This document shows positions 11,248 through 43,939 of a DNA stretch of 64,000 nucleotides, in pieces. The position numbers were made by a program, and so were the translations under genes. The stretch lies in assembly GCA_963816185.1 (NCBI GenBank), contig CAWFJJ010000008.1, positions 288,001 to 352,000 on the forward strand, given 5' to 3'. Every line of letters starts with the position of its first letter. Position 1 is the first letter of the stretch. The notes beneath the pieces were generated by a model. The model was not told the DNA's origin, ran no database searches, and saw only the letters and a program-made list of their open reading frames with translations. The stretch comes from Thermoanaerobaculia bacterium. Lineage in GTDB: Bacteria; Acidobacteriota; Thermoanaerobaculia; UBA5066.

Positions 11248-11252
11248 GAGAC

Positions 11253-12953: not shown

Positions 12954-12960
12954 GACCCTC

Positions 12961-13536: not shown

Positions 13537-13552
13537 GCCTCCGGCGCGCCGT

Positions 13553-13945: not shown

Positions 13946-15464
13946 TCCGCGCCTCCCGCTTCTTCCTCTCCTCGCGCTCCTCGAAGACTTCCTGGACCTC
14001 GTCGCACCCGCAGCGCAGCGCCATCGTGATGAGATCGAGCATGAGCTGGCGCATGTCCGCCGACTCGGGGTCTCGACGGAGCACGCGGAAGCAGACGAGA
14101 TTCAACCCCTCGAGCGCGTCGCAAAGCTCGGGCCCTTCGATCCTCTGATCGAAGCGGCGCATGGCGAGATCGCGGCAATAGGCCACGAGGAGCCCGTTCT
14201 CTTTCGTCCTCACGGCGTTCATGAGGTGGCGCAGGACGACGCGATGGTTCCAGGATTGGTCTTCCGGGCTGATCGTGCGATAGCTCGGAAAACGCGCGGA
14301 ACCCTTCGGGTCGAGCAGGAGCTCGCTGTAGGACCGGAGGATCTCGTCCTGATGCCGTTCGAGAAGAGCGTACAGCCTGAGGTTGGAGGGCAGCTCGACG
14401 CGCGTCATCGCCGCCCGATTCAGGTGGTGCCATTCCACGGGATCCGTTTTCAGGTGCTCGAGGAGAAACGGGAGGCGGCGGAGGATCTCGAGGCGGGGCC
14501 GGGGCGCCCAGCCGGTGCGCTCGCGCGTCCTCGAGGCATCGACGGCCATCACGAGGTCGATGTAGCGCGCCATCCAGGGCTGCTCGAAAGGTCGCGCTCC
14601 CGTGAGCCGGCCGAGAAGGTCGCGCGCGGCCATGCCCGGCCCGCAGAGTGCCTTCGGCACGTGAAAAGGCTCTTTTCGCGTGCCGAAGTAGCTGAGCGTC
14701 GCGGCCTCGAAGAGCTCTTCGTGCGACGTGGCGACGTCGGGGCTCGCGATGAGAACCTCTCCCGGAGCGAGCATGGGCGCCAGGTCGAGAACGCGTCGGA
14801 GGAGCGACACGACGTCCTTCACGTGCAGGTACGGGATGGCCGAACGCCCGTGGCCTCCGAGGATCCCGCGGTTCCACGCTCGGGAGAGCCACGTCTCGAG
14901 GAACATGAAAAGGGGCGGGTACTCGCACCAATCCGAAAACAACGCGGCGAACCGGACGATCGTGGACGGAAACGAGTCCCGATATTCCGCCAGCATCTCC
15001 TCGCCGATGCGTTTCGTTCGCGCATAGATGTGGTCGCCGTCGGCGCGGCTGTCCTCGTTGAGCGCCCAGCCGGGAGCCGGGAAGCGACTCGCGGCCACGG
15101 AGCTGGAGAAGACGACGTGGCGGACACGATTCTCCCTCGAAAGGTCCAGGACGTTGCGGAGGCCCTCCACGTTCGTCCGCATGTATTCGGGGTGTTCCTC
15201 GCCCGTGAAGTCGTAATGCGCGGCGAGGTGGATGACGGTATCGGCGCCCCCGTCGGCAGCTATCTGGTCGAAGACGGTCTTCAGGCCGGCCCGATCCCCG
15301 ATGTCGACCTGGAACCACGAGATGTTCGCGTGCCGCGGGGCGCCGCTTCGGGCCTGGCTTCGCCGGGCGATCCCGTAGATGCGGAAGTCTTCTTGAAGCG
15401 CAGCCAGCAGGTTTCGACCGACGAATCCGGACGCGCCGGTGACGATGAGGCGGGGAAGGGCCAC
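13896..15464 (-). CDS. NAD-dependent epimerase/dehydratase (extended SDR) with an extra C-terminal helical domain
   Basis: TGASGFVG, HLAAHYDF, SSS and YARTK; about 170 extra C-terminal residues; GTG start inferred. Confidence 0.85.
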   Translation of the reverse strand: MALPRLIVTGASGFVGRNLLAALQEDFRIYGIARRSQARSGAPRHANISWFQVDIGDRAGLKTVFDQIAADGGADTVIHLAAHYDFTGEEHPEYMRTNVEGLRNVLDLSRENRVRHVVFSSSVAASRFPAPGWALNEDSRADGDHIYARTKRIGEEMLAEYRDSFPSTIVRFAALFSDWCEYPPLFMFLETWLSRAWNRGILGGHGRSAIPYLHVKDVVSLLRRVLDLAPMLAPGEVLIASPDVATSHEELFEAATLSYFGTRKEPFHVPKALCGPGMAARDLLGRLTGARPFEQPWMARYIDLVMAVDASRTRERTGWAPRPRLEILRRLPFLLEHLKTDPVEWHHLNRAAMTRVELPSNLRLYALLERHQDEILRSYSELLLDPKGSARFPSYRTISPEDQSWNHRVVLRHLMNAVRTKENGLLVAYCRDLAMRRFDQRIEGPELCDALEGLNLVCFRVLRRDPESADMRQLMLDLITMALRCGCDEVQEVFEEREERKKREARIRPPTPSGERATRQAP

Positions 15465-26364: not shown

Positions 26365-27378
26365 GTGCTGATCGTCATGGACCGGAGCGCCACGGGCGAA
26401 GACGTCGGCCGTGTCGTCGCCGCCGCGGAGCGCCTCGGGTTGAAGGCCCACCCGATTCCGGGCGCGCAGCGCACGGCGGTCGGTATCACGGGCAACAAGG
26501 GCACGGTGGGGCCGGCGGCGTTCGAAAGCCTGCCGGGCGTTCTCGAGGTCATCCGGGTCTCGCATCCGTACAAGCTCGTCTCGCGCGAGTTCCACCCCGA
26601 GGACACCATCGTCTCCGTGGGCGGCGTCCCCATCGGCGGCACGCGCATCGTCGTGATCGCGGGGCCTTGCGCCGTCGAGACCCGGGAGCAGACGCTCACG
26701 ATCGCGCGCCAGGTCAAGTCGCGAGGCGCCGATCTCCTGCGCGGCGGCGCCTACAAGCCGCGGACTTCGCCATACGCGTTCCAGGGCCTCGCCGAGGAAG
26801 GCCTGAAGATCCTCGCCGAGGCCCGTGAGGAGACGGGCCTGCCCGTCGTCACCGAGGTGCTCGACACCGAGACGGTCGACCTCGTGGCCTCGTACGCCGA
26901 TTGCCTGCAGGTGGGCGCGCGCAACATGCAGAACTTCGAGCTCCTGAAGAAGGCGGGCCGTACCGGGAAGCCCGTTCTTCTGAAGCGCGGCATGTCGGCC
27001 ACGCTCGAGGAATTCCTGCTGGCGGCCGAGTACGTCCTCTCGGAGGGGAATCCGAACGTCGTCCTCTGCGAGCGGGGCATCCGCACGTTCTCGGATTTCA
27101 CGCGCAACACGCTCGACCTGTCGGTCGTGCCGGCGGTCGAGCGTCTGTCGCACCTGCCGATCGTCGTCGACCCGTCGCACGGAACCGGGCGCCGCGACAA
27201 GGTCGTGCCCATGTCGCGCGCGTCGATCGCGGCCGGCGCCGACGGCATCGCGGTCGAGGTCCACCACAAGCCGGCCGAGGCTCTGTCGGACGGCCCTCAG
27301 GCGCTCACGCCCGACATGTTCAGCGAGCTGATGGACCAGATCCGCCCGATCGCGGCGGCGGTCGGGAGGACGGCATGA
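26365..27378 (+). CDS. aroF: 3-deoxy-7-phosphoheptulonate (DAHP) synthase, class I-beta with N-terminal regulatory domain
   Basis: [33 protein letters not shown] and DPSH. Confidence 0.95.
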
Positions 27379-28485
27379 GCGGCGCGCTCCTCGTCCTCGA
27401 GGACGGCCGGTCGTTTGCGGGCCGCGCCGTCGGGGCGCCGGGAACGACGTTCGGCGAAGTCGTCTTCAACACGGGTATGTCGGGTTATCAGGAGACGCTG
27501 ACCGACCCGTCCTATCGCGGGCAGATCGTCGTCATGACGGCCTCGCACATCGGCAATTACGGCCTCAACGACGAGGACGTCGAATCTTCGCGGATCCAGG
27601 TCGCCGGCTTTCGCCGCACGGCATTTCCCGGACCGCTTCTCGAGCGCCCGGGGCAAGGAGCCGATCGGCCAGGGGCTCGCGGAGGGCGGCGTCGTGGGAA
27701 TCGACGAGCTCGATGCGCGCGCCCTCGTTCGGCATCTCAGGAGCCGGGGCGTCATGCGCGGCGCGATCTCCACCGAGACGGCATCCGAGGCCGACGCCGC
27801 GGCGCTCGTCGAAACAGTGAAGGAGCAGCCGACGATGGCGGGCGCCGCTCTCGCTCTGACGGTCGGAACCACGGCGCGCTACGGTTTCGCGCTTCCCCGG
27901 GGCGTGGCGCGAAAGGGGCGCGTGGCCGCCATCGACTACGGCATCAAGAGGAACATCTTGAGGATGCTCGCCGCGCGCGGCCTCGAGCCGACCGTGTTCC
28001 CGGCGGCGGCGACCGCCGGGGAGATGCTCGCGGAGGGATTCGACGGCTACTTCCTTTCGAACGGCCCGGGCGATCCCGACGCGCTGCCGTCATGCGTCGC
28101 GGAGGTGAAGCGCCTCGTCGAGTCCGGCAAGCCCGTGTTCGGCATCTGCCTCGGGCAGCAGCTCCTGGGCCTCGCTCTCGGCGGCACGACGTACAAGCTC
28201 AAGTTCGGTCACCGCGGCGCGAACCATCCGGTGAAGAACCTTCAGACGGGCCGCGTCGCCATCACGTCGCAGAATCACGGCTTCTCCGTCGCGTCCGAGT
28301 CGTTGCCGTCGAACGTCGAGCTCACGCACGTCAACCTCAACGACGGCACGTGCGAGGGCTTCCGGGCGACGGACCGTCCCGTCTTCGCGGTGCAGTACCA
28401 CCCGGAATCCGCCCCGGGCCCGCACGACTCGGGCGCGCTGTTCGACGAGTTCGTGAGTCTCGTGGAGCGGGCCGACGCGCGCTGA
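27375..28485 (+). CDS. carA: Carbamoyl-phosphate synthase small subunit (frameshift near 27610)
   Basis: [33 protein letters not shown] and QYHPE. Confidence 0.93.
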
Positions 28486-30771: not shown

Positions 30772-31062
30772 ATGTCGAAGGTCACGAGCAAGCTCCAGGT
30801 CACCGTTCCGAAAGTCATCGCGGAGCAGTATCGAATCCGGCCTGGCGACGAAATCAGCTGGAAGCCTGCCGGTGATGCCGTCCGCGTCGAAGTCGCCGGA
30901 CGGGAAGCGCGTCCGAAGCTCAGCATCGAACAACGACTCGTGCTGTTCGACGCCTCGACGGCCCGACAACAGAAGAGGAATCTGGTCTGGAAAGGTCGCC
31001 GGCCGCCTAAAGACCGCGGATGGAAACGCGAGGACCTCTATACCCGTGGCCTTCCTCGTTGA
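30772..31062 (+). CDS. AbrB/MazE/SpoVT family antitoxin
   Basis: SKVTSKLQVTVPK...IRPGDEI swapped-hairpin signature. Confidence 0.88.
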   Translation: MSKVTSKLQVTVPKVIAEQYRIRPGDEISWKPAGDAVRVEVAGREARPKLSIEQRLVLFDASTARQQKRNLVWKGRRPPKDRGWKREDLYTRGLPR

Positions 31063-31477
31063 CACGAACGTCCTTGTCTATCGGTTCGACTCGCGCGAAC
31101 CCGGCAAGCGCGAAATCGCTACGAAGATTCTGCGAAAAGGGGTTGCCGAAGACCAGGTGCGTCTGTCGCATCAGGCTATCGTGGAGTTTGTCTCGGCGGT
31201 TACGCGTCCGATCCGATCCGGGGCCGCTCTCCTCTCACACGACGACGCGCGCCGTGAGGCGGAAGACCTTCTGAGCCAGTTCGTCGTCCTCTATCCGAAC
31301 GAGGGCCTCATCCGCACGGCCCTTCGTGGCATGGCTGCCTACCGGCTCTCGTGGTACGACGCCCACATGTGGGCCTATGCCGAGACGAACGGCCTCGAGC
31401 AGATCCTTTCGGAGGACTTTCAGCATGGGCGGCTCTACGGATCCGTCCTGGCCGTGAACCCGTTTCTCCGGGCGTAA
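31046..31477 (+). CDS. vapC: PIN-domain toxin
   Basis: LVDTNVLVY, IVEF, SWYDA and SEDF; GTG start overlaps the antitoxin. Confidence 0.88.
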   Translation: MAFLVDTNVLVYRFDSREPGKREIATKILRKGVAEDQVRLSHQAIVEFVSAVTRPIRSGAALLSHDDARREAEDLLSQFVVLYPNEGLIRTALRGMAAYRLSWYDAHMWAYAETNGLEQILSEDFQHGRLYGSVLAVNPFLRA

Positions 31478-31489
31478 GCTTCCGCCTCC

Positions 31490-31999
31490 ATGAAACCCAT
31501 CGCCGGACGGGTGGTCGTGGCCGCCGACCACGGCGGCTACGCCCTGAAAGAAGCGATCAAGCGGCACCTCGTGTCGCGAGGCGTGGACGTTCTCGACGTC
31601 GGGACGAGCTCGACCGAAGCAGTCGATTATCCCGTCTTCGCGCGCGCGGCCGCCGAGGCCGTCGCCTCGGGACAGGTCGGACGTGGCATCGTCGTCGACG
31701 GTGCCGGCATCGGCTCGGCCATGGTCGCGAACAAGGTCGCCGGCGTCCGCGCCGGCATGGCCTTCGACCTCGCCACCGCGAAGAACGCCCGGGAGCACAA
31801 CGACGCGAACGTCCTGACGCTCGGCGCCGGGTATCTCGCCGAAGACCTCGCGCTCCAGATCGTGGACGTCTTCCTGTCGACCGAGTGCACCGCGGAGCGC
31901 CACCGGCGGCGAGTCGCTATGATCGACGCGATCGACGCCAGCCGCCGAAACGCGCCGGAGGGTTCGCTCCATCCGGCGACTTCGAGGAGCTCTCCGCCC
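31490..31999 (+). CDS. rpiB: RpiB/LacAB family sugar-phosphate isomerase (in frame with deoC, no stop between)
   Basis: [35 protein letters not shown] and RHRRRV. Confidence 0.9.
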
Positions 32000-32933
32000 A
32001 TGACCTCACCCGACTTCGATTCGCTCGTCGGCCGGATCACGCAGATCCTGGCGGCGAATCCCTCGCTCCTGGTCCCGCCCACCTGTGCGGGGTGCGCGGG
32101 TTGCGCGGCCGCCGGAGCCACGGAGTGTCCGGCGGGCGGGCATTGCGTGACCCGCTGTCCCGACACGGTCCGCTCGATGATCGCTTGCGTCGGGCCAGGG
32201 TGCCGAGTATCGGCTGCTCCCGGCGTCGGCGAGGTGCCCAAGGACCTCGCGAAGTTCATCGACCACACTCTTCTCCGCGCCGACGCCACATACACGGATA
32301 TCGACAAGCTCTGCGACGAGGCCGCCCAGTTCGGCTTCGCGTCGGTGTGCGTCAACCCCGTCTTCGTCAGGCGCTGCGCCGCCAGGCTGGCCGGCAGCTC
32401 CTCGGTCGTGTGCACCGTGGTCGGCTTTCCGCTCGGGGCCATCCCGAGGGAGATGAAGGCGCTCGAGGCGCGGCGCGCCGTCCGCGAGGGCGCGAGCGAG
32501 ATCGACATGGTCATCGCGATCGGGGCGCTCAAGTCGGGAGACCTAGTCGCACGTCGAAGAGGACATTCGCGCCGTGGCGGAAGCCGCCCACGACGGAGGC
32601 GCGATCCTCAAGGTGATCCTGGAGACATCGCTCCTGACGGACGAGGAGAAGGTAGCGGGCTGCGTCGCCGCCCGAAAGGCGCGCGCGGAGTTCGTGAAGA
32701 CCTCGACGGGGTTCTCCACCGGCGGCGCCACGGCGCGCGACGTCGAGCTCATGGCGCAGGCCGTCGACCGGAAGCTCGGCGTGAAGGCGTCGGGAGGAAT
32801 CCGTTCCGCCGAGGACGCGCAGAAGCTCATCGCCGCGGGAGCGACACGGATCGGAGCCTCGGTCGGCGTGAAGATCGTCAAGGAGGCGCGAGGCCTCGCC
32901 ACCGCCTCCGAAGAGACAAAAGGCGCTTACTGA
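32000..32933 (+). CDS. deoC: Deoxyribose-phosphate aldolase with N-terminal encapsulation-peptide-like helix and Cys-rich domain (frameshift near 32545)
   Basis: [47 protein letters not shown] and RIGAS. Confidence 0.9.
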
Positions 32934-33570
32934 TGGCGGACCTCCGGAGCTTCGTGACGCTCGACGCGATGCAGCCGCAGGTCGCGGCGTACATCGGAAC
33001 GATCGCCCGCGGCTTCCTTCCGGTCGCCTTCGAGGCCTCCCTCATCGTGGAGATCTCCCCGGGCATCGAGATCAACCGCGTCACCGACGTCGCCGTCAAG
33101 GCGACCGACGTGCGCCCCGGAATGCAGGTCGTCGAGCGGCTCTACGGGATGCTCGAGGTCCACAGCCCCTCGCAGGCCGAGGTCCGGCAGGCCGGCGCCG
33201 CCATCCTCGCCGCGCTCTCGCTGAACGAAGCCGACCGGATCAAGCCGCGCGTCCTCTCCTCGCAGGTCATCCGCCGCGTCGACGACTCTTCAGGCGCAGC
33301 TCATCAACCGTGACCGGCAGGGGATGATGCTCGTGGCCGGGCGAGTCGCTCTACATCCTGGAGGTCGAGCCCGCGGGCTACGCGGGGTTCGCGGCGAACG
33401 AGGCCGAGAAGGCCGCGGAGATCAACGTCGTGGACGTCCGGATGACCGGAGCCTTCGGGCGCGTCTACCTCGGAGGCGAGCAGCGCGACATCGACGTGGC
33501 CTCGGTCGCGGCCATCCGGGCGATCGAGTCCCTCACCGGGCGCGAGGCGCAGAAGAGCCGGAGGGACTGA
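32933..33570 (+). CDS. BMC shell protein, stacking tandem-domain trimer (BMC-Tdp, CcmP-like); frameshifts near 33288 and 33340
   Basis: [45 protein letters not shown] and AFGRVYL. Confidence 0.88.
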
Positions 33571-33575
33571 GGGCG

Positions 33576-34199
33576 GTGATCGACCTCCGAAGCTACGTCT
33601 TCCTCGACTCGCTCCAGGAGCAGCACGCGGCTTTCCTCGGGACGGTCGCGAAGGGATTCCTGCCCGTGGGCGGACAGGCGTCGCTCTTCATCGAGGTTTC
33701 GCCCGGGATCGCGATCAACCGGCTCACCGACATCGCGGTCAAGGCGACCTCCGTCACGCCCGGAATGCAGATCGTCGAGCGGCTCTACGGCCTGCTCGAG
33801 ATCCATCACGACGATCAGGCCGAGGTGCGCCGCGCGGGCGAAGCGATTCTCGGGGAGATCGGAAAGGCCGAAGGCGACCGGATCAAGCCCGAGATCCTCT
33901 CCTCGACCGTGATCCGGGGCCTCGACGACCGGCAGACGCAGCTCATCAACCGGACGCGCCACGGCCACATGATCGTGGCGCGGCAGTCGCTCTACATCCT
34001 GGAGTGCCAGCCGGCGGCGAACGCCGCGCTGGCGGCGAACGAGGCGGAGAAGGCCGCGCACATCAAGGTGCTGGAGATCGTCTCGTTCGGCTCGTTCGGC
34101 CGGGTCTACCTGGCGGGAGCCGACCGCGACATCGACGTGGCTCTGCCGGCGGCCGAGCGGGCGATCCAGGGCCTATCCGGACGCGCGGCAAAGTCGTAG
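33576..34199 (+). CDS. BMC shell protein, second BMC-Tdp
   Basis: [43 protein letters not shown] and SFGRVYL. Confidence 0.9.
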
Positions 34200-34258
34200 A
34201 ACACGTCATGGCGAGGAACTGACAACCCGAAGGCGGGGAGAGAACAGGAGGATCGGAG

Positions 34259-34578
34259 ATGGCCGAAGCACTGGGAATGATCGAGTGCCGCTCGTTCGCG
34301 GCGATGGTGGAGGCGGCCGACGCGATGGTGAAGGCCGCGAAGGTGGAGCTCGTCGAGCTACGAGAAGACGGGCGGAGGCTACGTCACCGCCATCATCCGC
34401 GGCGACGTGGCGGCCGTGAAGGCGGCCGTGGATGCGGGGCAGAACGGCGGCGTCTCGCGTCGGCGAGATCGTGACGACCCACATCATCGCCCGCCCGCAC
34501 GTGAACGTCGACCTCGTCCTTCCGCTCGGCCGCACGGCCGAGGCCGGGAAGGAGACCGGCGCGCACGTCAAGAAGTAG
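34259..34578 (+). CDS. BMC hexamer shell protein (BMC-H, EutM/PduA-like); frameshifts near 34355 and 34455
   Basis: [39 protein letters not shown] and HIIARPH. Confidence 0.9.
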
Positions 34579-34610
34579 GCGGATCACAGGCGTGGGGAGG
34601 CGGTGAGGCG

Positions 34611-34967
34611 ATGCTCCTGGCAAAAGTCGTCGGAACCGTGGTGGCGTCGCGGAAGGACCCCAAGATCGAGGGGCTCAAGTTCCTCCTGCTCCGGCAGGTG
34701 AACCCCGAGAACCTCAAGGAGGGTGGCTTCGTGGTCGCCAACGACGCCGTCGGCTGCGGCCTCGGGGAGTATGTCCTCTACGCGTCCGGCTCCTCCGCCC
34801 GCCAGACCGAGGTCACGAAGGACCGCCCCTGCGACGCGGTCATCATGGCGATCGTGGACACGTGGGAGATCGGCGGCCAGACGCTCTTCGAGAAGAACTC
34901 GTCCGAGCACGGGTACGGCGATGAGCGCCATCTAGCCCCGACGAGATCCGGCGCCTCGCCGAGCTGA
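34611..34967 (+). CDS. BMC pentamer vertex protein (BMC-P, EutN/CcmL family) 1
   Basis: [29 protein letters not shown] and DAVIMAIVD; true end may be near 34924. Confidence 0.9.
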
Positions 34968-36380
34968 TCGCCCGGGAGCTCGTGGCGGAAGGGAACGCGA
35001 GGCCCCTGCGCGCCGTTCGGCCCCGATCTCCCCGGCGACGGCGTCGGCCTCGGAGGCGGCGTTTTCTCGAAGCTCGACGACGCGGTCGCTGCGGCGTCGC
35101 GCCGCGTTCCGGGGCCTCGACGCGCTCGGCCTCGAGAAACGGCACGCGATCATCGAGTCGATGCGCGAGGCGATGCGCCAGAACGCGCGTTCCCTCGCGG
35201 CTCTTGCCGTCGAGGAGACGGGCCTCGGCCGCGTGGAGGACAAGGTCCAGAAGAACCTCCTCGTCACGAACAAGACTCCCGGCCCCGAGGAGCTCGCGCC
35301 GCAGGCCACCTCGGGGGATCACGGCCTCGCCCTCATCGAGCCCGCGCCATTCGGCGTCATCGGGGCGATCACTCCGGTCACGAATCCCTCGTCCACGATC
35401 ATCTGCAACTCCATCGGCATGGTGGCTGCGGGAAACACGGTCGTGTTCAACCCGCACCCTTCGGCCAAGAGAGTCTCCCAGGAGACGGTCCGTCTTCTCA
35501 ACGCGGCGATCGTCGGGGCCGGAGGGCCGCCGAACACGGTCTCCTGCACGGCCGAGCCGACGATTCAAATCCGCGGGCGAGCTGATGAAGCACCCGAGGA
35601 TCCGCCTCCTCGTCGTGACGGGGGGCGGCGCCGTCGTGGCCGCCGCGATGAACTCCGGCAAGAGGGCCATCTGCGCCGGACCCGGCAATCCGCCGGCCAT
35701 CGTCGACGGGACGGCCGACATCGAGAAGGCGGGACGCGACATCGTCTTCGGGCACTCGTTCGACAACAACGTCATCTGCACGGACGAGAAGGAAGTCATC
35801 GCCGTCGACTCCATCGCCGACGCGCTGAAGGGCGTGATGAAGAAGGCCGGGGCCTTCGAGCTTCCCGTCCGCGACCTCCCGCGCCTCGAGAACGTGATCT
35901 TCGAGAAAGGGGCGGGGCCGCGCGGCCACGCCGTGGTCAACAAGAAGTACATCGGCAAGGACGCGTCGGTGATTCTCAAGGAGCTCGGGATCACCGCCGG
36001 ACCCGAGGTGCGGACGCGTTCTCGTGGAAGTGCCGAACGAACACCCCCTCGTCTGGACCGAGCAGATGATGCCGGTCCTGCCGCTCACGCGCGTCAGGAA
36101 CGTGAACGACGCGATCGACCTCGCCGTCGCGGCCGAAGGGGCGTGCTTCCACACCGCCACGATGCACTCGCACGACATCGCGGCGCTTTCGGCGATGGCG
36201 CGCCGGTGCAACTGCTCGATCTTCGTGAAGAACGGCTCTAACCTGGCCGGTCTCGGGTACGGGGGCGAGGGCTACACCTCGTTCACGATCGCGTCGCCGA
36301 CGGGCGAAGGGATGACGAGCCCGCGCTCGTTCTCCCGCTGGCGCCGCTGCACGCTCGTCGATCATTTCCGGATCGTGTGA
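34921..36380 (+). CDS. CoA-acylating aldehyde dehydrogenase (EutE/PduP family) with N-terminal encapsulation peptide; about five frameshifts
   Basis: [15 protein letters not shown] helix; [40 protein letters not shown], catalytic FDNNVIC and [11 protein letters not shown]. Confidence 0.88.
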
Positions 36381-36381
36381 C

Positions 36382-36987
36382 GTGAAAAGCGAGAATCCCG
36401 GCCCCGCGCTCGCGATGCTCCTTGTCGACGAGGTTCCGCCGGGCCTCGCCGTTCTGGACGCGCTCGCGAAGGAAGCGGATGTGGACGTGCTCCAGACGGG
36501 CACGATCCACGGCGGCCGCTACCTGATTCTTTTCGGCGGCGAGGTCGGGCCCGTGGAGCGCTCGTGGCGCCGGGCTCTCGAGACCGCAGGCTCTCACGTC
36601 GTCGACGAGATGCTCCTCCCGCACGCCGAGTCTCGCCTCGCGCCCGCGATCGGGACGGGAGCGATCCGCTGGCCGGCGCCCGGCGACACCCTCGGCGTCC
36701 TTCAGGCCGCGACGCCTCCGGCCCTCGTCCGCGCCGTCGACGCGGCGCTCAAGGGGGCGCTCGTCGACCTCGTGGAGCTGCGCGTCGGGGACGGCCTCGG
36801 CGGGAAGGCCATCGCGAGCCTCTGGGGCGAGACGCACGACGTGGAGGCAGCAATCGCTCTCGCGCGGATCTCGTTCGAAAAAGCGGACGCTCAGGGCACT
36901 TCGACCGCGGTCATCCCACGAGCCGACACGGCCGTCCAGGAAACCCTCGGCTCGCCGAGCCGCTTCTTCAAGGAATTCCGCGGATGA
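36382..36987 (+). CDS. BMC shell protein, single-layer tandem-domain trimer (BMC-T, PduT-like)
   Basis: Two BMC repeats: PALAML...DALAKEA...GGRYLILFGG and TLGVL...DAALKGA...GLGGKA. Confidence 0.85.
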   Translation: MKSENPGPALAMLLVDEVPPGLAVLDALAKEADVDVLQTGTIHGGRYLILFGGEVGPVERSWRRALETAGSHVVDEMLLPHAESRLAPAIGTGAIRWPAPGDTLGVLQAATPPALVRAVDAALKGALVDLVELRVGDGLGGKAIASLWGETHDVEAAIALARISFEKADAQGTSTAVIPRADTAVQETLGSPSRFFKEFRG

Positions 36988-37271
36988 AACTCGGGAGGGT
37001 CATCGGCACGCTCGTCGCAACCGTGAAGCCGGACGCGATGAAAGGACTGAAGCTCCTCATCGTCCGGCCGCTCACGGCGGACCTCGCGGATGACGGCGAT
37101 CCGTTCGTCGCCACCGACGCCTCGGCGCAGGCCTCGTCCGGCGACCTCGTCACGTGGGAGGCGGCCCGCGAGGCAGCCCTCCTCCACGACCCGTGGTTCA
37201 TTCCGGTCGACCACGCCGTCGTCGGGATCGTGGACCAGCACGCCCTGGATAATCGGGAGCCGACGCGATGA
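36984..37271 (+). CDS. BMC pentamer vertex protein (BMC-P) 2
   Basis: MKLGRVIGTLVATVK, VATD, AREA and PVDHAVVGIVD. Confidence 0.9.
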   Translation: MKLGRVIGTLVATVKPDAMKGLKLLIVRPLTADLADDGDPFVATDASAQASSGDLVTWEAAREAALLHDPWFIPVDHAVVGIVDQHALDNREPTR

Positions 37272-37564
37272 TCCTCGGGCGCGTCCTCGGGACGGTTGTC
37301 AGCACCGTCCAGCATCCGTACTTCAACGGTCGAAAGCAGCTCCTCGTGGGCGCGGTCCTCCCGGACGGAACGCTCGACGGCACCCGGTACATCCTCGCGC
37401 TCGACATGGTCGGCGCCGGCGTGGGGGAGACCGTTCTCGTGGAGGACGAGGGGAACTCCGCGCGCCAGGTCCTCGGGGACCCGAAAGCGCCGGTGAGATC
37501 GCTCATCGTGGCGATCGTGGACGAGGTCGACGTGCCCGCTCCTGGCCGTGACCCAGGCCCGTAA
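37268..37564 (+). CDS. BMC pentamer vertex protein (BMC-P) 3
   Basis: MILGRVLGTVVST, ALDMVGAGVGE, EGNSARQ and IVAIVD. Confidence 0.9.
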   Translation: MILGRVLGTVVSTVQHPYFNGRKQLLVGAVLPDGTLDGTRYILALDMVGAGVGETVLVEDEGNSARQVLGDPKAPVRSLIVAIVDEVDVPAPGRDPGP

Positions 37565-37629: not shown

Positions 37630-38766
37630 ATGCCGCTCGCCATTTCCCGCCGCACGTTCGCCGGAACCCTCGGCGCCGCCGCCGGAGCTGCTTTGCTGGA
37701 CTCTCCGCTGGTTCGCCGTACGGCCGAGGCGGCGACCAAACGCCGTGAGCGGCCGGCCGACGCCATCCTCCTCAACGCGAACGAAAACCCGTACGGACCT
37801 TCCGCGAAAGCGCTCGAGGCCGCGGCGAAGGCGGCCCCGAACCGGTATCCCGACGGGCCCGAGGAGGAGGTCCGCGCGGCGATCGCGAGGCATCACGGCG
37901 CCCGACCGGAGCAGATTGTCCTCGGCTGCGGCTCCTCCGAGGTCCTGCGCATGGCGGACATGGCCTTCGGCGGCCCCGGCCGACGGGTCGTCGCCGCCGA
38001 GCCGACGTTCGAAGCGGTCCTCGTGTTCGCGAAGGTGCTCCACGCCGATGGCGTGAAGGTCCCCCTCACCCCCGACTTTCGCCACGACCTCCCGAGGATG
38101 GCACAGGCCTGCGACGCGTCGACAGGCCTGGTCTACGTATGCAACCCGAACAATCCGACCGGCACGATCGTCTCCGGCGACGAAATGGCGGCCTTCGCGG
38201 CGCGCGTCCCGGCGTCGGCGACGATCCTCGTCGACGAGGCCTATCACCACTTCGTGGAGGATCCGCGCTACCGCACCTCGTGCGGACTGATCACGGCACA
38301 CCCGAACGTGGTCGTGGCCCGCACGTTCTCGAAGATCTACGGGATGGCCGGCCTCCGGCTCGGGTACGCGATCGGCGCCGAGCCGAAGATCAAGGCGATG
38401 ACTCCCTTCGCGTCCTGGAGCAACACGAACTCGGCGGTGCTCGCCGCGGCTCTCGAATGTCTCGCCGATCCGGATCTCGTCCCGCGCCAGAAGAAGACCT
38501 TGAACGACACGCGGCGCTGGCTCGTCGCCGAGCTCGCGAAACAGGGCCGGCGCACGATGCCTTCCGAGACGAACTTCGTCATGATCGACGTGGGCAAGGA
38601 CGTCACTCCCGTCATCGAGGCGTTCCGAAGCCGGAAGATCCTCGTCGGGCGAAAGTTCCCGTCGCTCCCGAACTGGCTGCGGGTGAGCGTCGGAACACGG
38701 CCGCAGACGGAGGCGTTCGTCTCGGCGCTCGGTGAGATCGTCCCGGTGAGGGCAGCAGCGGCCTGA
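37630..38766 (+). CDS. PLP-dependent class I/II aminotransferase (HisC-like) with Tat signal
   Basis: SRRTF leader; NANENPYGP, NPNNPTG, DEAY and RTFSKIYGMAGLRLG. Confidence 0.9.
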   Translation: MPLAISRRTFAGTLGAAAGAALLDSPLVRRTAEAATKRRERPADAILLNANENPYGPSAKALEAAAKAAPNRYPDGPEEEVRAAIARHHGARPEQIVLGCGSSEVLRMADMAFGGPGRRVVAAEPTFEAVLVFAKVLHADGVKVPLTPDFRHDLPRMAQACDASTGLVYVCNPNNPTGTIVSGDEMAAFAARVPASATILVDEAYHHFVEDPRYRTSCGLITAHPNVVVARTFSKIYGMAGLRLGYAIGAEPKIKAMTPFASWSNTNSAVLAAALECLADPDLVPRQKKTLNDTRRWLVAELAKQGRRTMPSETNFVMIDVGKDVTPVIEAFRSRKILVGRKFPSLPNWLRVSVGTRPQTEAFVSALGEIVPVRAAAA

Positions 38767-38783: not shown

Positions 38784-41297
38784 CTACTTCAATCCTTCTA
38801 CCAGGAAGAGGTCCGACAGAATGCGGTGATAGCTGTAAGCGTATGACGAGACGTCGGGCGTGAGTACGACCGAGACGATCTCCACGACGCCCGCGGCGTC
38901 GGGCGGCATCAGCTCCTGCGAAGGGTGCTTCTCGCCCGTTCCGAGGTCGAGGCGGATCACGTGGGCGGGAAGCTCACCGCGCCGGTACGCGAAGAGAACC
39001 TTGCCGTCGGGGGAGAACCGGATCGGGCGGTCCTCGGCGACGAGGCCCGGAACGTACTCGGGATCTCCGCCTTCGATCGGGAATCCGTAGAAGAGCCCGT
39101 CCGGACCCTGCGCCGCCACGAGGCGCGCGTCGGGAGAGACGGGGAAAAAGCCCATCCCGATTCCCTCCGGCGTGATCGGTCGTGGCGGCTCGCCCGCGAC
39201 GCCCTGCACGAAGAGGCGAAGCCCCTCGCCGGGCACGTTCGCCGCCGCGAGAATCCGCTTGCCGTCCGGGAGCCACCACGCGCGGTGGACGCGCAGCTCG
39301 TTCTTGGGAAGCTCCCGGGGCTCGCCGGCCTTCGTCGGCAGGAGCGTGATCCGGCGCCCGTCGGGCGCCATGCTTTGTGACGCGACCCATCGGCCGTCCG
39401 GCGAGAAATTCCCGGCCCAGCCGTCGCCGAGGTGCACGGCGGGCGTGCCTTCCGTGCGGCGCACATAGACCGCGTGGCGAGCCCCGCCGCCTTCTCCGCT
39501 TTCGTCGAAGAGGATCAGCTTCCCGTCCGTCGAGATGTCGCGGACGAGCGACCAGTCGAGGAGAGAGAGGTCCCGGTCGCGGTCCGCGCCGGGCGGCCGC
39601 CCGATGATTCCGACCTTCCCGTTGTCGCTCGTCATGAGGATGCGGCCGTCGGCGGCTGCGTCCTGGATCGTCAGCTCGCCCGGCGTGCGGACCAGAAGAC
39701 GCTCTTTCCCCTCGAGAGTCACCGACCAGATCGAGCGCGCGACGCCGACGCGCGTCGCCGTGAACCAGATCTCCTTCCCGTCACCCGACCACACGAGTCC
39801 GTACGCGGTGATCCAGTCCTTCGCGAGCACGGTGCTCTTCCCGGAGCGGTCCACCACGACGACGGAGCCCTCGTCGTCGCCGAGCGTCGGGTGGTCGAGG
39901 AACGCGACGAGGTCTCCTTTCGGCGAGACGCGCGGATGGCTCAACCAGCCCCCGGTCTCGTAGAGAACCTTGCCGATCGGATATTCGAGCCGGGTCTTGC
40001 CCGCGACGGAACGCACGACGGCGAGGTGCGCTCCGTCGGGTCCCCAGTCGGCCCAGTGTACGTTTTCGAGAAGCTCGCGCGGCGCCCCGCCCGCCAGCGG
40101 CACCTGCGCGAGCGTGCCGCTCCAGATGAACCGGCCCGCCCAGCGGCGCTCGAGCGAGATCGCGAGCTGACCCGTCCGCGAAATGGCAAGGATCTCGGCG
40201 TCCGGCAGCATGAGCGGGCTCGACTCGGGGCTCTCGGGGCGCGTCGAGAAGAGCCGGCAAGGCTCGCCTTCCCAGGCCGCGCCGTAGATCACCGTACGCC
40301 CATCCGGGGCGAATCGCGCGGAGAGGATCGTGCCGCGCCGGAAGCTGAGGCGCTGGAACGTCGGGAGGTCCTCCTCCTTCGTCACGCCCCGGTCGGCCGC
40401 GGCGATCTCGCCGGACACGGCCTCCGACAGGTGGTCGCGGAGCGTGGCGAGGTCCCGCGCCAGATCGCGCGTCGAGGCATACCGTCCGTCCGCGTCCTTC
40501 GCGAGGCAGCGTTCCACGATCCAGCGCAGCGGCGCCGGCAAACGCGGGTTCAATTTCGCGATCGGCTCGGGCTCTTCGCGGATGACCGCCACGAGCGTCT
40601 CGGCCGCGCTGTCGCGCTGAAAGGCGCGTCGCCCCGTCGCCAGCTCGTAGAGGATCGTGCCCAGAGAGAACTGGTCCGAACGTAAGTCCGCCGGCTTGCC
40701 GCTCGCTTGCTCCGGCGACATATATCCGACCGTGCCCATGATCATGCCCGGAACCGTTCCGGACGCGGTCGCGGCAGCGGAGAGGTCGTGCGAGGGTTTC
40801 TCGGCCGCCTTCGCGAGGCCGAAGTCGAGGATCTTCACCCAGCCCTCGCGGGACACCATGACGTTCTCGGGCTTCAGGTCGCGGTGGACGATTCCGGCCG
40901 CATGCGCTTTCGCGAGACCCTCGGCAATCTGTACCCCGATCTCGAGGAGCTTCTTCACCGGCAGCGGCTCCGCCGGAAACGCGTGGCGTAGCGTTTCGCC
41001 CTCGACCAGCTCCATGACGAGGAGGTGGCGGCCGGAAACGCCGGCGGAACCGGGGATTTCTTCGAATGAATAGATGGCCGCGACGTTGGGATGATTCAGA
41101 GCCGCGAGCAGCTTCGCTTCTCGCTCGAAGCGCGCGACCCTCTCTTTGTTTTCGAAGAACTCTTCCGAAAGGACCTTGATTGCGACGTCTCTCGAGAGCC
41201 TCGTGTCTTTCGCCCGATAGACCTCTCCCATTCCCCCCGCGCCGAGCGGCGTGAGGATCTCGTACGGACCGAGCTTCGTGCCGGGGGCGAGCGTCAT
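38784..41297 (-). CDS. Hanks-type Ser/Thr kinase with C-terminal PD40/TolB-like beta-propeller and no evident TM
   Basis: GAGGMG, VAIK, HRDLKPEN, DFG and YMSPE; repeated SPDG/APDG blades. Confidence 0.92.
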   Translation of the reverse strand: MTLAPGTKLGPYEILTPLGAGGMGEVYRAKDTRLSRDVAIKVLSEEFFENKERVARFEREAKLLAALNHPNVAAIYSFEEIPGSAGVSGRHLLVMELVEGETLRHAFPAEPLPVKKLLEIGVQIAEGLAKAHAAGIVHRDLKPENVMVSREGWVKILDFGLAKAAEKPSHDLSAAATASGTVPGMIMGTVGYMSPEQASGKPADLRSDQFSLGTILYELATGRRAFQRDSAAETLVAVIREEPEPIAKLNPRLPAPLRWIVERCLAKDADGRYASTRDLARDLATLRDHLSEAVSGEIAAADRGVTKEEDLPTFQRLSFRRGTILSARFAPDGRTVIYGAAWEGEPCRLFSTRPESPESSPLMLPDAEILAISRTGQLAISLERRWAGRFIWSGTLAQVPLAGGAPRELLENVHWADWGPDGAHLAVVRSVAGKTRLEYPIGKVLYETGGWLSHPRVSPKGDLVAFLDHPTLGDDEGSVVVVDRSGKSTVLAKDWITAYGLVWSGDGKEIWFTATRVGVARSIWSVTLEGKERLLVRTPGELTIQDAAADGRILMTSDNGKVGIIGRPPGADRDRDLSLLDWSLVRDISTDGKLILFDESGEGGGARHAVYVRRTEGTPAVHLGDGWAGNFSPDGRWVASQSMAPDGRRITLLPTKAGEPRELPKNELRVHRAWWLPDGKRILAAANVPGEGLRLFVQGVAGEPPRPITPEGIGMGFFPVSPDARLVAAQGPDGLFYGFPIEGGDPEYVPGLVAEDRPIRFSPDGKVLFAYRRGELPAHVIRLDLGTGEKHPSQELMPPDAAGVVEIVSVVLTPDVSSYAYSYHRILSDLFLVEGLK

Positions 41298-43939
41298 TTC
41301 GATTCCGGTGTCCAGCCGACGACGACCGTGATCGGTACCCCAGCGTCTGAGGTCCTCCGCGAGTTCACGATGAAGCGCTTCCCGTCGGGCGTCACGTCGT
41401 AATGGTTGCGAGCCTCGATCAGGGGCAGGATGCGCGTCTGAAAGAGCGCGCGGGGGGGGTCCGACTCGAGCCGCGGATGAGTCCGGATGTCCACGGCCAT
41501 GATCTTGCGATCCGGGGCGACGTAGTAGAGCTCCCTCCCATCCGACCGCCAGCGGGCCTGGGTGCCTCCCCGGGTGGAGATCTGCCGGCGCTCGGCAGCG
41601 TCCGGGAAGCTCCGGATGAAAATCTCGCGCGCGCCCGACTCGTCCGACTCGTGGGCCAGCCACCGGCCGTCGGGAGAGAGGCGTGCCCCCAGCTGGCTGA
41701 ACGTGTCTTGCAGGACGGGCCTGTTCGTCCCGGTCTGCAGGTCGCGCACCCATACGTCCATGTGGAAGGTCGGCCAGTCGACGACTTCGTAGAAGAGCAG
41801 CCGGCCATCCCGGGACCAGTCGTCGAGCGGAGCGAAGGTCGGCGTCTTGAAGAGGATCTTCTCGCTCTCCACTCCCTGGACGTCGCGTACGTAGACCTCG
41901 CCCGTCGGGAAGGCGCTGTAGGCGACCCTCTGTCCGTCCGGGCTCCACAGAGGCGTCGATGCGACCACTGCCTGGGATGAGACCCGGGTGAGGCTTCCGC
42001 GTTCGAGATCCATCTTCCAGATACTCGACGCCATGGCCTCCGTATCCATGCGAGGCACTGCAAGGGATTGCCCGTCCGGAGACAGGGTCGGCTCCCAGTA
42101 GGAGCCGTCCGGGCCGATCGATCCCAGCTCGCGGCCCGATCGGTCGTACCAGAGCAGGCGGCTCGCGACCGGGCCGCCGGTCTGACAGACGAGGATGCCC
42201 GTGTTCGAGGCGGACACCGCCGTCGCCATGGTCGAATAGCCCTCCCACCGGATGTTCTCGACGACGGGGACGGGCTCACCGGCGAGCAGACGCCGTTTCG
42301 CGTCGAACCGCTGCGCGACCAGTCGGTCGCCGCGCCGGTACAGGAGATAGCCCGGCGCGGCATAGATCGCGCCGCCGTCGGCCGCGGCGATACGCGTCGT
42401 CTCTTTGGACTCGAGCGACGTGACGTGGAGGCCCTGGACGTCGGCACCTCCCGCGAACACGAAATAGAGAAAATGAATACCGTCCGGGAGGAAGAACGGC
42501 CAGCGATAGGAGGCACCCGGCCGTAGCTGCGGGAGCGAAGCCGCCTGGCCGCCACCCTCGGCCACGCGCTCCACTGCGCCGCCGGCATTGATTGCGGCGA
42601 GGATGACGCCGTGGGAGCCCCACGATCCGCCGCGCGGCTCCGGCGCGTCGCAAAGCGTGACCGGGGTGCCCGTGGTCACGTCGATCCGCTTCAGTTTCGA
42701 CTGAGCGAAGAAACCGATCGACCGGCTGTCGGGGGACCAGAACGGAAGCGCCGCGCCTTCGGTCCCGGGGAGCACGCGCGATTCGAGCGAATCGAGAGGC
42801 CGAAGATAGAGAAGGTCGTTGCCGTCGGCGCCGGTCGCGACGAAGGTGAGCATCCGTCCGTCGGGAGAAACGGCGGGCATCGCCTGAAAACCCGCGCCCG
42901 AGGGTGGAGGGATCGTGAGGCGGAGTCTGGGCGAAGGCGCATGGAGCGAGCTCCCCCGAGGGATGAGGAGCGAGCCGAGGAGAAGCGCGAGGAACACACC
43001 TGCCGCGATCCAACCCACACGACTCCAGCGCCGTGAAAGCGCGATCGGCGTTTTCCGGTCGGAGATGGAGGAGGCTTCCGCGAGCTCGAGCGCGACGTCG
43101 CGGGCGTTTTGCACGCGGCGCTCGGGGTCCTTGGTCAGGCAGCGGCGCACGAGGCGATCGAGCGCCGGCGGGGTCGTCGGCCGGAGGGAGGAGACAGGAG
43201 GCGGATCGCTTTGCATGATGGCGGAGATCAGCGATGCCTGACTCGCGGCCGAGAACGCCTTCTTTCCCGTCGCCATTTCGTAGAGCACGCACCCGAGCGC
43301 AAAGATGTCCGTCCGGGCGTCGGCGGCCTTGCCTTCCAGCTGCTCGGGAGCCATGTACTGTGGCGTGCCCAGGATCGTCCCGAGTCCCGTGACCGCGTCT
43401 TTCGTCGGGAGCGCCGTCATCACGGCCGGCGAGGAGCCCAGGGAGCCGAGAGGCTTGGCGAGGCCGAAGTCGAGCAGCTTCACGCCGGACTTCGTCAGCA
43501 TCACGTTGCCGGGCTTCAGATCTCGATGGACGATTCCCTGCCGGTGTGCGCAGTCCAGGGCGTCGGCGATTTCCGCCCCGAAGCGCAGCGTCTGCTCGAG
43601 CAGCAGAGGTCCTTTCGCGAGCCGGTCCGCCAATGTCTCTCCCTCCAGGTACTCCATGACGAGCAAATGCCGCCCGGAGGAACCGGGGGAACCGGGGATT
43701 TCTTCGAACGAGTAGAGATGCGCGATGCCCGAATGGTTGAGGCTCGCGAGGATGCGGGCCTCGCGCTCGAATCGCGCGATGCTCTCCCCGTTCTCGAATA
43801 ATTCCTCCGGCAGGACCTTCAGGGCGACGACCCGCTCGAGGCGTGCATCCTTCGCCTTGTACACCTCGCCCATCCCGCCCGCGCCAAGGGCAGAAAGCAC
43901 CTCATAGGGCCCTAGTCGCGATCCCGCTGCGATGACCAG
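41294..43939 (-). CDS. Hanks-type Ser/Thr kinase with TM and PD40/TolB-like beta-propeller
   Basis: GAGGMG, HRDLKPGN, DFG and YMAPE; TM WIAAGVFLALLLGSLLI; SPDG blades; start uncertain (CTG 43939 or GTG 43900). Confidence 0.92.
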   Translation of the reverse strand: MVIAAGSRLGPYEVLSALGAGGMGEVYKAKDARLERVVALKVLPEELFENGESIARFEREARILASLNHSGIAHLYSFEEIPGSPGSSGRHLLVMEYLEGETLADRLAKGPLLLEQTLRFGAEIADALDCAHRQGIVHRDLKPGNVMLTKSGVKLLDFGLAKPLGSLGSSPAVMTALPTKDAVTGLGTILGTPQYMAPEQLEGKAADARTDIFALGCVLYEMATGKKAFSAASQASLISAIMQSDPPPVSSLRPTTPPALDRLVRRCLTKDPERRVQNARDVALELAEASSISDRKTPIALSRRWSRVGWIAAGVFLALLLGSLLIPRGSSLHAPSPRLRLTIPPPSGAGFQAMPAVSPDGRMLTFVATGADGNDLLYLRPLDSLESRVLPGTEGAALPFWSPDSRSIGFFAQSKLKRIDVTTGTPVTLCDAPEPRGGSWGSHGVILAAINAGGAVERVAEGGGQAASLPQLRPGASYRWPFFLPDGIHFLYFVFAGGADVQGLHVTSLESKETTRIAAADGGAIYAAPGYLLYRRGDRLVAQRFDAKRRLLAGEPVPVVENIRWEGYSTMATAVSASNTGILVCQTGGPVASRLLWYDRSGRELGSIGPDGSYWEPTLSPDGQSLAVPRMDTEAMASSIWKMDLERGSLTRVSSQAVVASTPLWSPDGQRVAYSAFPTGEVYVRDVQGVESEKILFKTPTFAPLDDWSRDGRLLFYEVVDWPTFHMDVWVRDLQTGTNRPVLQDTFSQLGARLSPDGRWLAHESDESGAREIFIRSFPDAAERRQISTRGGTQARWRSDGRELYYVAPDRKIMAVDIRTHPRLESDPPRALFQTRILPLIEARNHYDVTPDGKRFIVNSRRTSDAGVPITVVVGWTPESK

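Follow-up and report, generated by a model that had tools for sequence, protein, structure and literature searches.

Few bacterial organelles are as widespread as SPU microcompartments, yet to our knowledge all work on them has been in vitro, with the enzymes of one SPU6 locus. These enzymes, from Chloroflexi bacterium GWB2_54_36, are described as the only SPU enzymes characterised in vitro; the SPU6 DERA accepted deoxyribose-5-phosphate as a substrate, and isomerase activity of the SPU6 RPI on R5P was slight or absent (Dwyer 2024, PMC11585597). According to the same work, the housekeeping DERA lacks the N-terminal amphipathic-helix extension seen in SPU DERA, and an Asp at the Cys66 position together with a retained His99 is stated for all SPU RPIs. 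RPI-DERA fusions are reported there in 20 SPU3 loci, and Minicystis rosea is listed as SPU3 in Supplemental Dataset S1, by locus-tag prefix without coordinates (Dwyer, Sutter and Kerfeld 2024, PMC11585597). The function of the HO locus, named for Haliangium ochraceum, has been called enigmatic (Sutter 2021); that survey gives both T(dp) kinds as common to HO and SPU3, and credits HO loci with at most a distal pfam01791 gene.

The window (the whole stretch of DNA analysed here, 64,000 nucleotides) carries a nine-gene cassette at 31490-37564 on the + strand. It is likely, in our view, that this is a functional SPU3 operon that works through the DERA of a fusion protein and an aldehyde dehydrogenase, and that the ten insertions which break its reading frames are assembly consensus errors.

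Gene content and subtype of the locus

The genes of the cassette are, in order:

31490..32933, + strand: RpiB-DERA fusion, made up of an RpiB-like domain, an encapsulation-peptide-like (EP-like) helix, an 8-Cys linker and DERA; one private 1-nt insertion near 32546-32551, which shifts the frame
32933..33570, + strand: BMC-T(dp) 1, CcmP-like; its start overlaps the fusion stop by 1 nt; private 1-nt insertions at 33285 and 33339
33576..34199, + strand: BMC-T(dp) 2, intact, 207 aa; CcmP E 2e-73, 5v76 E 2e-72, HO-5816 E 6e-70, CsoS1D E 6e-52
34259..34578, + strand: BMC-H, the sole hexamer gene; private 1-nt insertions at 34354 and 34448
34611..34967, + strand: BMC-P 1; EutN_CcmL E 6e-26; deposited stop moved by the insertion at 34930
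34921..36380, + strand: CoA-acylating aldehyde dehydrogenase; five private insertions, at 34930, about 35007, 35100, 35567 and 36017
36382..36987, + strand: BMC-T(s), a single-layer tandem-BMC trimer, intact, 201 aa; two BMC domains, E 1e-23
36984..37271, + strand: BMC-P 2, intact; EutN_CcmL E 1e-17
37268..37564, + strand: BMC-P 3, intact; EutN_CcmL E 1.4e-21; best PDB match the HO pentamer in 5v74, E 2e-14

Pfam searches across the locus gave LacAB_rpiB (E 2e-47), DeoC in two pieces, Aldedh in three pieces, BMC domains and the three EutN_CcmL matches listed above, and together with the translations they recovered every element of the parts list drawn up in the first-pass annotation. In the genome (94.9% complete), BMC and EutN domains were found at this locus only. 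The assignment to an SPU-type locus was borne out, DERA, an RpiB-type domain and an acylating aldehyde dehydrogenase of the BMC type all lying within a full shell gene set, and both EP-like helices named at that stage are present in the translations. On one point the annotation has to be corrected: rpiB and deoC are not separate genes but share a single frame, open from 31490, that spans RpiB, the helix and the Cys-rich linker and reaches into DERA as far as the insertion, so that the helix assigned to DeoC falls between the two domains. Gene order is identical to that of intact loci in Thermoanaerobaculia MAGs, at 84-93% nucleotide identity.

The fusion, the CcmP-like T(dp), the predicted N-terminal dehydrogenase EP, the BMC-P triplet and the absence of PTAC appear to fit SPU3. 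This placement is by proxy, and gene order and 61-67% identity to Polyangiaceae loci, M. rosea included, suggest it. Since the operon begins with the DERA-RPI fusion gene, we file the locus under SPU3 and not under HO. The subtype is already known, and what is new is another SPU3 member, in a soil Thermoanaerobaculia host; the lower novelty foreseen for an exact match to a known subtype therefore applies.

As in SPU BMCs, the BMC-P triplet, BMC-H and BMC-T(s) are all encoded. CcmP is the best match of both T(dp) proteins, with HO-5816 and 5v76 next closest; for T(dp)1, the intact ortholog L010:11446-12081 gave E 1e-79 against CcmP and E 1.5e-68 against HO-5816. The BMC-H ortholog L010:12775-13095 is closest to HO-5815 (E 1.7e-41), and BMC-P1 stops about 30 nt earlier in relatives, by alignment columns. 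The Haliangium-type shell proposed at first holds for H, T(dp) and P, with HO-5815, HO-5816/5v76 and 5v74 as references. For BMC-T(s) the likeness is only moderate: its matches are PduT-type and 5dih chains (E 1e-19 to 2e-17), with 5dih, HO-5812-type, at E 2e-17 and PduT equally close. The pore loop of this protein reads TIHGG in the window, and a pore-loop Cys occurs in sister clades (14 of 60 loci). The idea that BMC-T(s) is a PduT-like [4Fe-4S] protein finds no support at this locus: the residue aligned with PduT Cys38 and HO-5812 S55 is the His one place before, and the window has Gly in the loop.

The fusion protein, the dehydrogenase and the proposed pathway

In relatives L010, L013 and L019 one uninterrupted ORF of 478-483 aa encodes the fusion, and among 80 related loci 72 keep it open for 400 aa or more; at full length it is found in 13 of 28 other genomes of the same genus. 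TIGR00126, the deoC equivalog, matches the window DERA in two halves lying in different frames (113.9 and 125.9 bits). The catalytic Asp/Lys/Lys of DERA are kept in the motifs EIDMV, KVILE and VKTSTGF, which are also read in the pieces from the window, and the domain is closely related to canonical DERAs (8qps, E 5e-70). In the RpiB domain, an Asp stands at the E. coli Cys66 position (DGAG against CGTG of 1nn4) and the His99 motif EHND is kept. This Asp (D70), DHGG, EHN and R..RH..R do not vary among the 71 fusion proteins compared, which fall under at least nine phylum labels, and this indicates an active site under constraint and not a mere scaffold. Such a strictly conserved Asp-type RpiB active site suggests a second, further catalytic step.

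Between the two domains lies the EP-like helix ([12 protein letters not shown]), conserved across 72 fusions. It corresponds to residues 176-189 of the L010 ortholog, where the AlphaFold model is of moderate confidence (block mean pLDDT 63-74). The DERA has the N-terminal extension with an amphipathic helix, a putative EP, that is described for SPU DERA. The dehydrogenase has a predicted N-terminal encapsulation peptide ([17 protein letters not shown]); its ortholog L010:13449-14879 matches 5jfl best in the PDB (E 5e-135), and FDNN..C..EKE, with the catalytic Cys, is conserved.

Directly after the encapsulation helix, the linker of the window clade bears a clade-specific insert with 7-8 cysteines (8 in the window itself). 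Myxobacterial linkers share the core CxxCxxCx(2-5)C, with 4 cysteines in M. rosea, and those of L040 and L042 have the exact ferredoxin-like CxxCxxCxxxCP. The Cys-rich stretch has a pLDDT below 50 in the AlphaFold model of the fusion, so the model speaks neither for nor against a metal site. The cluster is not described in the available parts of the SPU literature, though the supplement of Dwyer 2024 (tables S1-S2, figures S3-S4) may show it. As a tentative and rather doubtful candidate, we propose that the SPU3 cargo of Polyangiaceae and Thermoanaerobaculia has both a Cys cluster that could bind Fe-S or another metal and a second catalytic step at the RpiB site. If the linker did bind Fe-S or metal, the signature enzyme would be redox- or metal-regulated, or would lie within an electron path, and this could bear on the cofactor balance of an organelle without an NAD+ recycling enzyme.

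Feeder enzymes are present in the genome, with deoB (430 bits) and a pyrimidine-nucleoside phosphorylase (499 bits) both above their cut-offs. PTAC (PF06130) was not found in the genome, at 94.9% completeness, and the genes encoded in the cassette include no PTAC, alcohol dehydrogenase or NAD+ recycling enzyme. As a possible Pta partner, PF01515 matches only a 796-aa open frame, presumably a malic-enzyme-type fusion, and therefore lends such a partner no support. The genome search found no EutB, and the EUT-module satellite that some SPU3 and HO genomes are reported to have is therefore absent here.

For the substrate, encapsulation and metabolite traffic of the organelle we infer the following route. 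Nucleoside phosphorylase and phosphopentomutase would form deoxyribose-5-phosphate in the cytosol. This would enter the shell, where the DERA domain of the fusion would cleave it into glyceraldehyde-3-phosphate and acetaldehyde. The co-encapsulated dehydrogenase would then convert acetaldehyde, CoA and NAD+ into acetyl-CoA and NADH, the toxic acetaldehyde being trapped. The inter-domain helix would target the fusion protein and the N-terminal helix the dehydrogenase. Since PTAC and an alcohol dehydrogenase are not encoded, the large gated pores of T(dp) would presumably serve for the exchange of acetyl-CoA/CoA and NADH/NAD+, in line with the proposal of Dwyer 2024 (PMC11585597). Gene content and order, domain identity, catalytic motifs and their conservation, purifying selection and the presence of feeder enzymes are observed features of this system.

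Frame-breaking insertions and alternative readings

We aligned the locus from the window and 10 relatives with MAFFT and counted private indels of a length not divisible by three. The frameshifts suspected earlier are genuine in the deposited sequence: there are ten window-private frame-breaking indels, all insertions, at the positions listed above (32551 in the fusion). One lies in the fusion, two in T(dp)1, two in BMC-H, one in the overlap of the BMC-P1 stop and the dehydrogenase start, and four more in the dehydrogenase, where that at 35007 adds 2 nt in a variable-length linker (net +1). Five genes are interrupted, and BMC-T(dp)2, BMC-T(s), BMC-P2 and BMC-P3 are intact.

The ten insertions are absent from all 10 relatives. 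In three of four soil-metagenome runs (X5, X6 and X8, with a share of sampled words of 0.18-0.19, used for indel comparison only), contigs omit exactly one base at no fewer than seven sites, namely, among the indels listed, 33285, 33339, 34354/6, 34448, 35100, 35564/8 and 36017; 32551, 34930 and 35007 do not appear among them. With the insertions removed, there are zero in-frame stops and dN/dS against L010 is 0.06-0.19, like that of intact relatives among themselves; the window-private substitutions, 36 synonymous and 17 non-synonymous, are within the N/S range of the relatives (0.20-0.97), on pairwise and terminal-branch measures that a very recent inactivation could escape. Similar breaks occur elsewhere in the genome, in clusters in an RND efflux operon and as splits of the sole carA and of the second deoC. 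Assembly-wide, a GC-phase hidden Markov model, which flagged four of the ten insertions here, placed 336 of 1,781 same-strand frame switches without a stop (221 of them +1), a rough figure because short segments were filtered and some calls may be false. L021, another large-contig MAG, has private 1-nt insertions of its own at other sites, and short-read MAGs have zero private insertions inside the cassette genes in the alignment. We also considered retention of both alleles of a synonymous SNP at each insertion, and set it aside; it is suggestive at two sites only and not clearly so at the others, with SNP-like contexts CT[A][G]TCG near 32546 and GT[C][G]AGC at 34354.

These comparisons suggest that the ten insertions are most likely assembly consensus errors. 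That they are instead true mutations, in a recently decayed pseudo-operon whose lineage no longer makes the organelle, is quite unlikely, even though five of nine genes are broken in the deposited sequence. All ten events are insertions, against the usual bias of bacterial gene decay towards deletions, and the corrected sequence has no premature stops, its private substitutions are mainly synonymous, the sole carA, the second deoC and the RND operon are broken in the same way, and L021 shows the same error type at different sites. Decay would draw on the confinement of the insertions to 4.9 kb, with neighbouring genes intact; ten fall in 31490-36380 and none in the following 7.5 kb, a clustering that random error alone does not predict. 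The cassette is also accessory in the genus, as the count of full-length fusions indicates, so that its loss is plausible. Run X1, whose contigs come closest to the window (11 of them at 99% or more), covers position 34354 at depth 4.89 and does not show the one-base deletion of X5, X6 and X8; the extra base may thus be present in the nearest population too, or a contig end may fall at this site. If the insertions are consensus errors, the apparent pseudogenisation is an artefact of the assembly, and gene calls and metabolic reconstructions made from it would wrongly miss the organelle.

Deoxyribose-5-phosphate might also not be the true substrate. The RpiB-like domain could act first on another sugar phosphate, with its Asp as base, and DERA on the isomerised product or synthetically, a scheme that agrees with the invariant RpiB-domain motifs and the covalent union of the two domains, and rarer sugar phosphates are left possible for SPU BMCs (Dwyer 2024, PMC11585597). 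Against it, the SPU6 DERA cleaves deoxyribose-5-phosphate while its RPI has next to no R5P isomerase activity, the window-type DERA is close to canonical DERAs, and according to the same source no known pathway joins an RpiB product to DERA; we regard it as rather unlikely. It is extremely improbable that the locus encodes an HO-type microcompartment of enigmatic function and not an SPU one. In its favour, the H. ochraceum shell has the same set of parts and supplies the nearest solved structures of H, T(dp) and P, and the T(dp) kinds are shared between the two types (Sutter 2021). Against it, DERA and RPI, the signature that defines SPU, lie inside the locus, where HO loci have at most the distal pfam01791 gene, and the M. 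rosea locus, which shares the gene order of the window, is an SPU3 entry in Dataset S1.

Comparison with described microcompartments

The locus of M. rosea DSM 24000 (L019), from a Polyangiaceae and not a Thermoanaerobaculia host, has the same nine-gene order, including the fusion and the dehydrogenase with an N-terminal EP, and likewise has no PTAC; its fusion protein is 67% identical to that of the window over residues 1-352. The two differ in the linker cysteines (4 against 7-8 in the window clade) and in the pore loop of T(s), QCG in M. rosea and HGG in the window. A MazE/PIN pair lies directly upstream of the cassette in the window and is inserted relative to M. rosea.

The SPU6 BMC of GWB2_54_36 also has the N-terminal extension of DERA, its Asp/Lys/Lys, and an RPI with Asp for Cys66. 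Its DERA and RPI associate physically as separate proteins from separate genes, whereas the pair in the window is, judging by the genes, covalently fused. Moreover, its dehydrogenase EP is C-terminal, in contrast to the predicted N-terminal one of the window, and its shell proteins belong to other clades. The Cys-rich linker and the Asp site of RpiB offer testable leads on SPU cofactor balance and on the role of RPI.

The model shell of H. ochraceum (5v74 and related structures) has the same parts as those known here from genes: one H, three T, of which two are double-layer, and three P. Its structures are the closest solved for the window-type H, T(dp) and P, and the T(s) is distantly similar to the 5dih chain. 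The T(dp)-H-P adjacency in the window parallels the HO tags 5816-5815-5814, the last of which we take to be that of the H. ochraceum BMC-P. The H. ochraceum shell genes are presumably scattered over several loci. The main HO loci are without DERA or RPI, whereas the operon of the window opens with the DERA-RPI fusion. A soil Thermoanaerobaculia example of SPU3 has the shell parts of the best-understood model shell, and this link between SPU3 and HO shells lends support to a role of HO-type shells in the catabolism of sugars derived from nucleic acids, as has been suggested in print.

Layout and enzymes of the microcompartment operon

The bacterial microcompartment (BMC) locus lies at 31490-37564 (+) of the window with a G+C content of about 69%, and its gene map was built from three-frame translation and anchor mapping. 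By Pfam, DeoC falls into two pieces and an aldehyde dehydrogenase into three; the search also recovered an RpiB domain (E 2e-47), BMC domains and three EutN/CcmL pentamer genes. The first-pass annotation had correctly recognized an organelle locus: every element that it listed (rpiB, deoC, BMC-T, BMC-H, BMC-P and the aldehyde dehydrogenase) was recovered by Pfam and translation, and its boundaries were exact, 31490 being the start of the fusion gene and 37564 the stop of the third BMC-P. Its separate rpiB and deoC genes did not survive translation; both are present, in a single open frame that reads RpiB, a helix [12 protein letters not shown], an eight-cysteine linker and deoxyribose-phosphate aldolase (DERA). 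In 341 stretches of the genome collection the fusion protein is hit as a single segment; nearest are Thermoanaerobaculia/Acidobacteriota MAGs (74-95% amino-acid identity), then come Polyangiaceae (61-67%), among them the complete genome of Minicystis rosea, and then diverse phyla (44-51%). All nine genes are intact and ordered as in the window in three related loci, L010, L013 and L019 (M. rosea).

Gene sizes in L010, L013 and L019, in operon order
RpiB-DERA fusion: 478-483 aa
BMC-T(dp), double-layer trimer: 211 aa
BMC-T(dp), second: 207-210 aa
BMC-H, hexamer: 105-106 aa
BMC-P, pentamer: 104-105 aa
Aldehyde dehydrogenase: 475-486 aa
BMC-T(s), single-layer trimer: 201-210 aa
BMC-P, second: 95-100 aa
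BMC-P, third: 92-109 aa

The DERA domain keeps its Asp/Lys/Lys motifs (canonical DERA match, E 5e-70), the dehydrogenase keeps its catalytic Cys, and in the RpiB domain the Cys66 position is Asp; this Asp and the other RpiB active-site motifs are invariant in 71/71 fusions. Since deoB and a pyrimidine-nucleoside phosphorylase are both encoded on contig C28, gene content indicates that deoxynucleosides can supply deoxyribose-5-phosphate. No second BMC locus, PTAC or EutB was detected in the genome, which is 94.9% complete.

~32066-32185 (+): cysteine linker of the RpiB-DERA fusion, eight Cys, C-x2-C-x2-C-x7-CP...GHC...TRC...IAC...GPGC

In the window's clade the linker, which follows the helix that resembles an encapsulation peptide (EP), contains 7-8 cysteines, and the eight-Cys pattern is conserved in the Thermoanaerobaculia clade; Polyangiaceae/'delta' sequences have 4-5 Cys with a CxxCxxCx(2-5)C core, reduced in Polyangiaceae to a 4-Cys CxxCxxC-type core, and most of the other clade 0-2, most fusions outside these groups lacking the pattern. 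The AlphaFold model leaves this stretch unresolved, and it may form a metal or Fe-S site. Iron, Fe-S and zinc do not come up in the main text of Dwyer, Sutter and Kerfeld 2024 (PMC11585597), and a literature full-text search returned nothing relevant; the linker cysteines are a detail unreported in the literature searched, that main text included.

Origin of the frame breaks

All frame changes within the locus are +1 shifts by three-frame translation and anchor mapping. When ten relatives (nucleotide identity 84-93%) were aligned to the locus with MAFFT, ten window-private indels emerged that are not a multiple of three, all of them insertions and all missing from 10/10 relatives; the one at 35007 is of 2 nt within a linker of variable length (net shift +1), and the one at 34930 falls in the overlap between the stop of BMC-P1 and the start of the dehydrogenase.

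32551, 33285, 33339, 34354, 34448, 34930, 35007, 35100, 35567, 36017 (+): private insertions
G000:C25:48921-54236 (source assembly; L001): AcrA/AcrB/OprM-type RND operon, about a dozen frame switches
~27365-28485 (+), G000:C8:315384-316467: carA, profile match in two frames
G000:C24:41529-42165 (-): second deoC, TIGR00126, 169.6 bits

The breaks might reflect either a decayed operon or errors of the consensus, and we consider the latter very likely for the ten insertions. Contigs of four soil-metagenome runs from four studies were compared with the locus; among the matches listed, which take in seven of the ten insertion sites, those of X5, X6 and X8 have exactly one base fewer at 33285, 33339, 34354/34356, 34448, 35100, 35564/35568 and 36017. 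The sole result against consensus error comes from X1, whose contigs are the most similar, cover 34354 and show no deletion there. Removal of the inserted bases leaves nine of nine genes without internal stops, and dN/dS against L010 is then 0.06-0.19, as it is when intact relatives are compared with one another. Moreover, at sites otherwise invariant the window carries 36 synonymous and 17 non-synonymous private substitutions; this N/S of 0.47 falls inside the range of the ten relatives (0.20 to 0.97), which argues that selection at the codon level continued along the branch on which the ten frameshifts would have arisen.

The defect extends beyond the BMC locus. A GC-phase HMM run on the 5.09-Mb genome found 336 frame switches without a stop among 1,781 same-strand switches, 221 of the 336 being +1, and coordinate arithmetic gave +1 for 10 of 12 successive switches in the RND efflux operon. 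Two more clusters of stop-less switches were seen at C25:248785-253696 and C28:295324-298139. The gene for the small subunit of carbamoyl-phosphate synthase, carA, has a single copy in the genome and breaks at profile position 76, with a +1 shift near 27611; the housekeeping-type second deoC is broken too, its match containing stops. Another large-contig MAG, L021 (locus ~10355-15000), has private 1-nt insertions of its own, at sites that differ from the window's, and a fragmented aminotransferase, whereas short-read MAGs have no such insertions inside the BMC operon genes. In G007, like L021 a MAG of the same genus-level group, the fusion gene lies in two frames (G007:C5:451889-452934). With consensus error preferred, the organism itself probably carries an undamaged locus, the breaks being confined to the assembly.

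Distribution and neighbouring genes

Of 28 other same-genus genomes, 13 have a full-length fusion, as do 3 of the 32 genomes searched outside the genus; the fusion is thus an accessory trait. In a quick maximum-likelihood tree, midpoint-rooted and without a completed careful search, the Thermoanaerobaculia clade of the window type (15 rows, support 100) is nested in one rich in Polyangiaceae (31 rows, support 100), and other Acidobacteriota fusions fall in the second major clade. This topology fits transfer between phyla, in either direction.

30772-31062 (+): MazE/AbrB-type antitoxin gene
ends 31477 (+): PIN-domain toxin gene
37630-38766 (+): class I/II aminotransferase, E 1e-52
38784-43900 (-): tandem pair of Ser/Thr protein kinases, with about 830 and 868 aa intact

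The MazE/PIN pair (30772-31477) separates the BMC operon from an FtsX-like permease gene. Among related loci it was found only in L006, and it is therefore a variable insertion immediately upstream. The aminotransferase directly downstream has no evident link with the BMC; it carries a twin-arginine-like N-terminal signal (SRRTFAG...) and is a conserved neighbour in loci L005, L006, L009, L010 and L021, at distances that vary by about 1.5 kb. In translation, the long C-terminal regions of both kinases look like TolB-type beta-propellers.

Comparison with SPU3 and Haliangium ochraceum shells

Seven sugar-phosphate-utilising (SPU) subtypes have been defined by Dwyer, Sutter and Kerfeld 2024 (PMC11585597). 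According to the same source, RPI-DERA fusions are known from 20 SPU3 loci, SPU1, 4 and 7 lack T(dp) and are the main subtypes with PTAC, T(dp) is CcmP-like in SPU2 and SPU3, the dehydrogenase carries its EP at the N-terminus in all subtypes but SPU6, Cys66 is replaced by Asp in all SPU RPIs, and M. rosea is SPU3 in Dataset S1. The window locus has each of the features that apply to SPU3 (fusion, CcmP-like T(dp), no PTAC found, N-terminal EP, Asp for Cys66). Judged by these features it is an SPU3 locus, a subtype already described, as the first-pass annotation had allowed for.

The description 'Haliangium-type shell' was fair. BMC-H is nearest to HO-5815 of the H. ochraceum (HO) model shell (E 1.7e-41) and BMC-P3 to the HO pentamer (E 2e-14); the first T(dp) is nearest to CcmP (E 1e-79) and then HO-5816 (E 1.5e-68), the second to CcmP (E 2e-73), 5v76 (E 2e-72) and HO-5816 (E 6e-70). 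For T(s), PduT-type proteins and HO-5812-derived chains are about equally close (E 1e-19 to 2e-17). The T(s) pore loop (residues 41-45; gene at 36382-36987 (+)) reads TIHGG in the window, as it does in the six nearest relatives, and TIHCG in sister clades, with Cys in 14/60 loci; the His of the loop falls in the alignment at the [4Fe-4S] ligand of PduT (C38) and engineered HO-5812 (S55C). Both T(dp) kinds are common to HO and SPU3, and the function of HO has been called enigmatic (Sutter et al. 2021, PMC8217296). Because DERA and RPI are encoded within the locus, it is assigned to SPU3 and not to HO.
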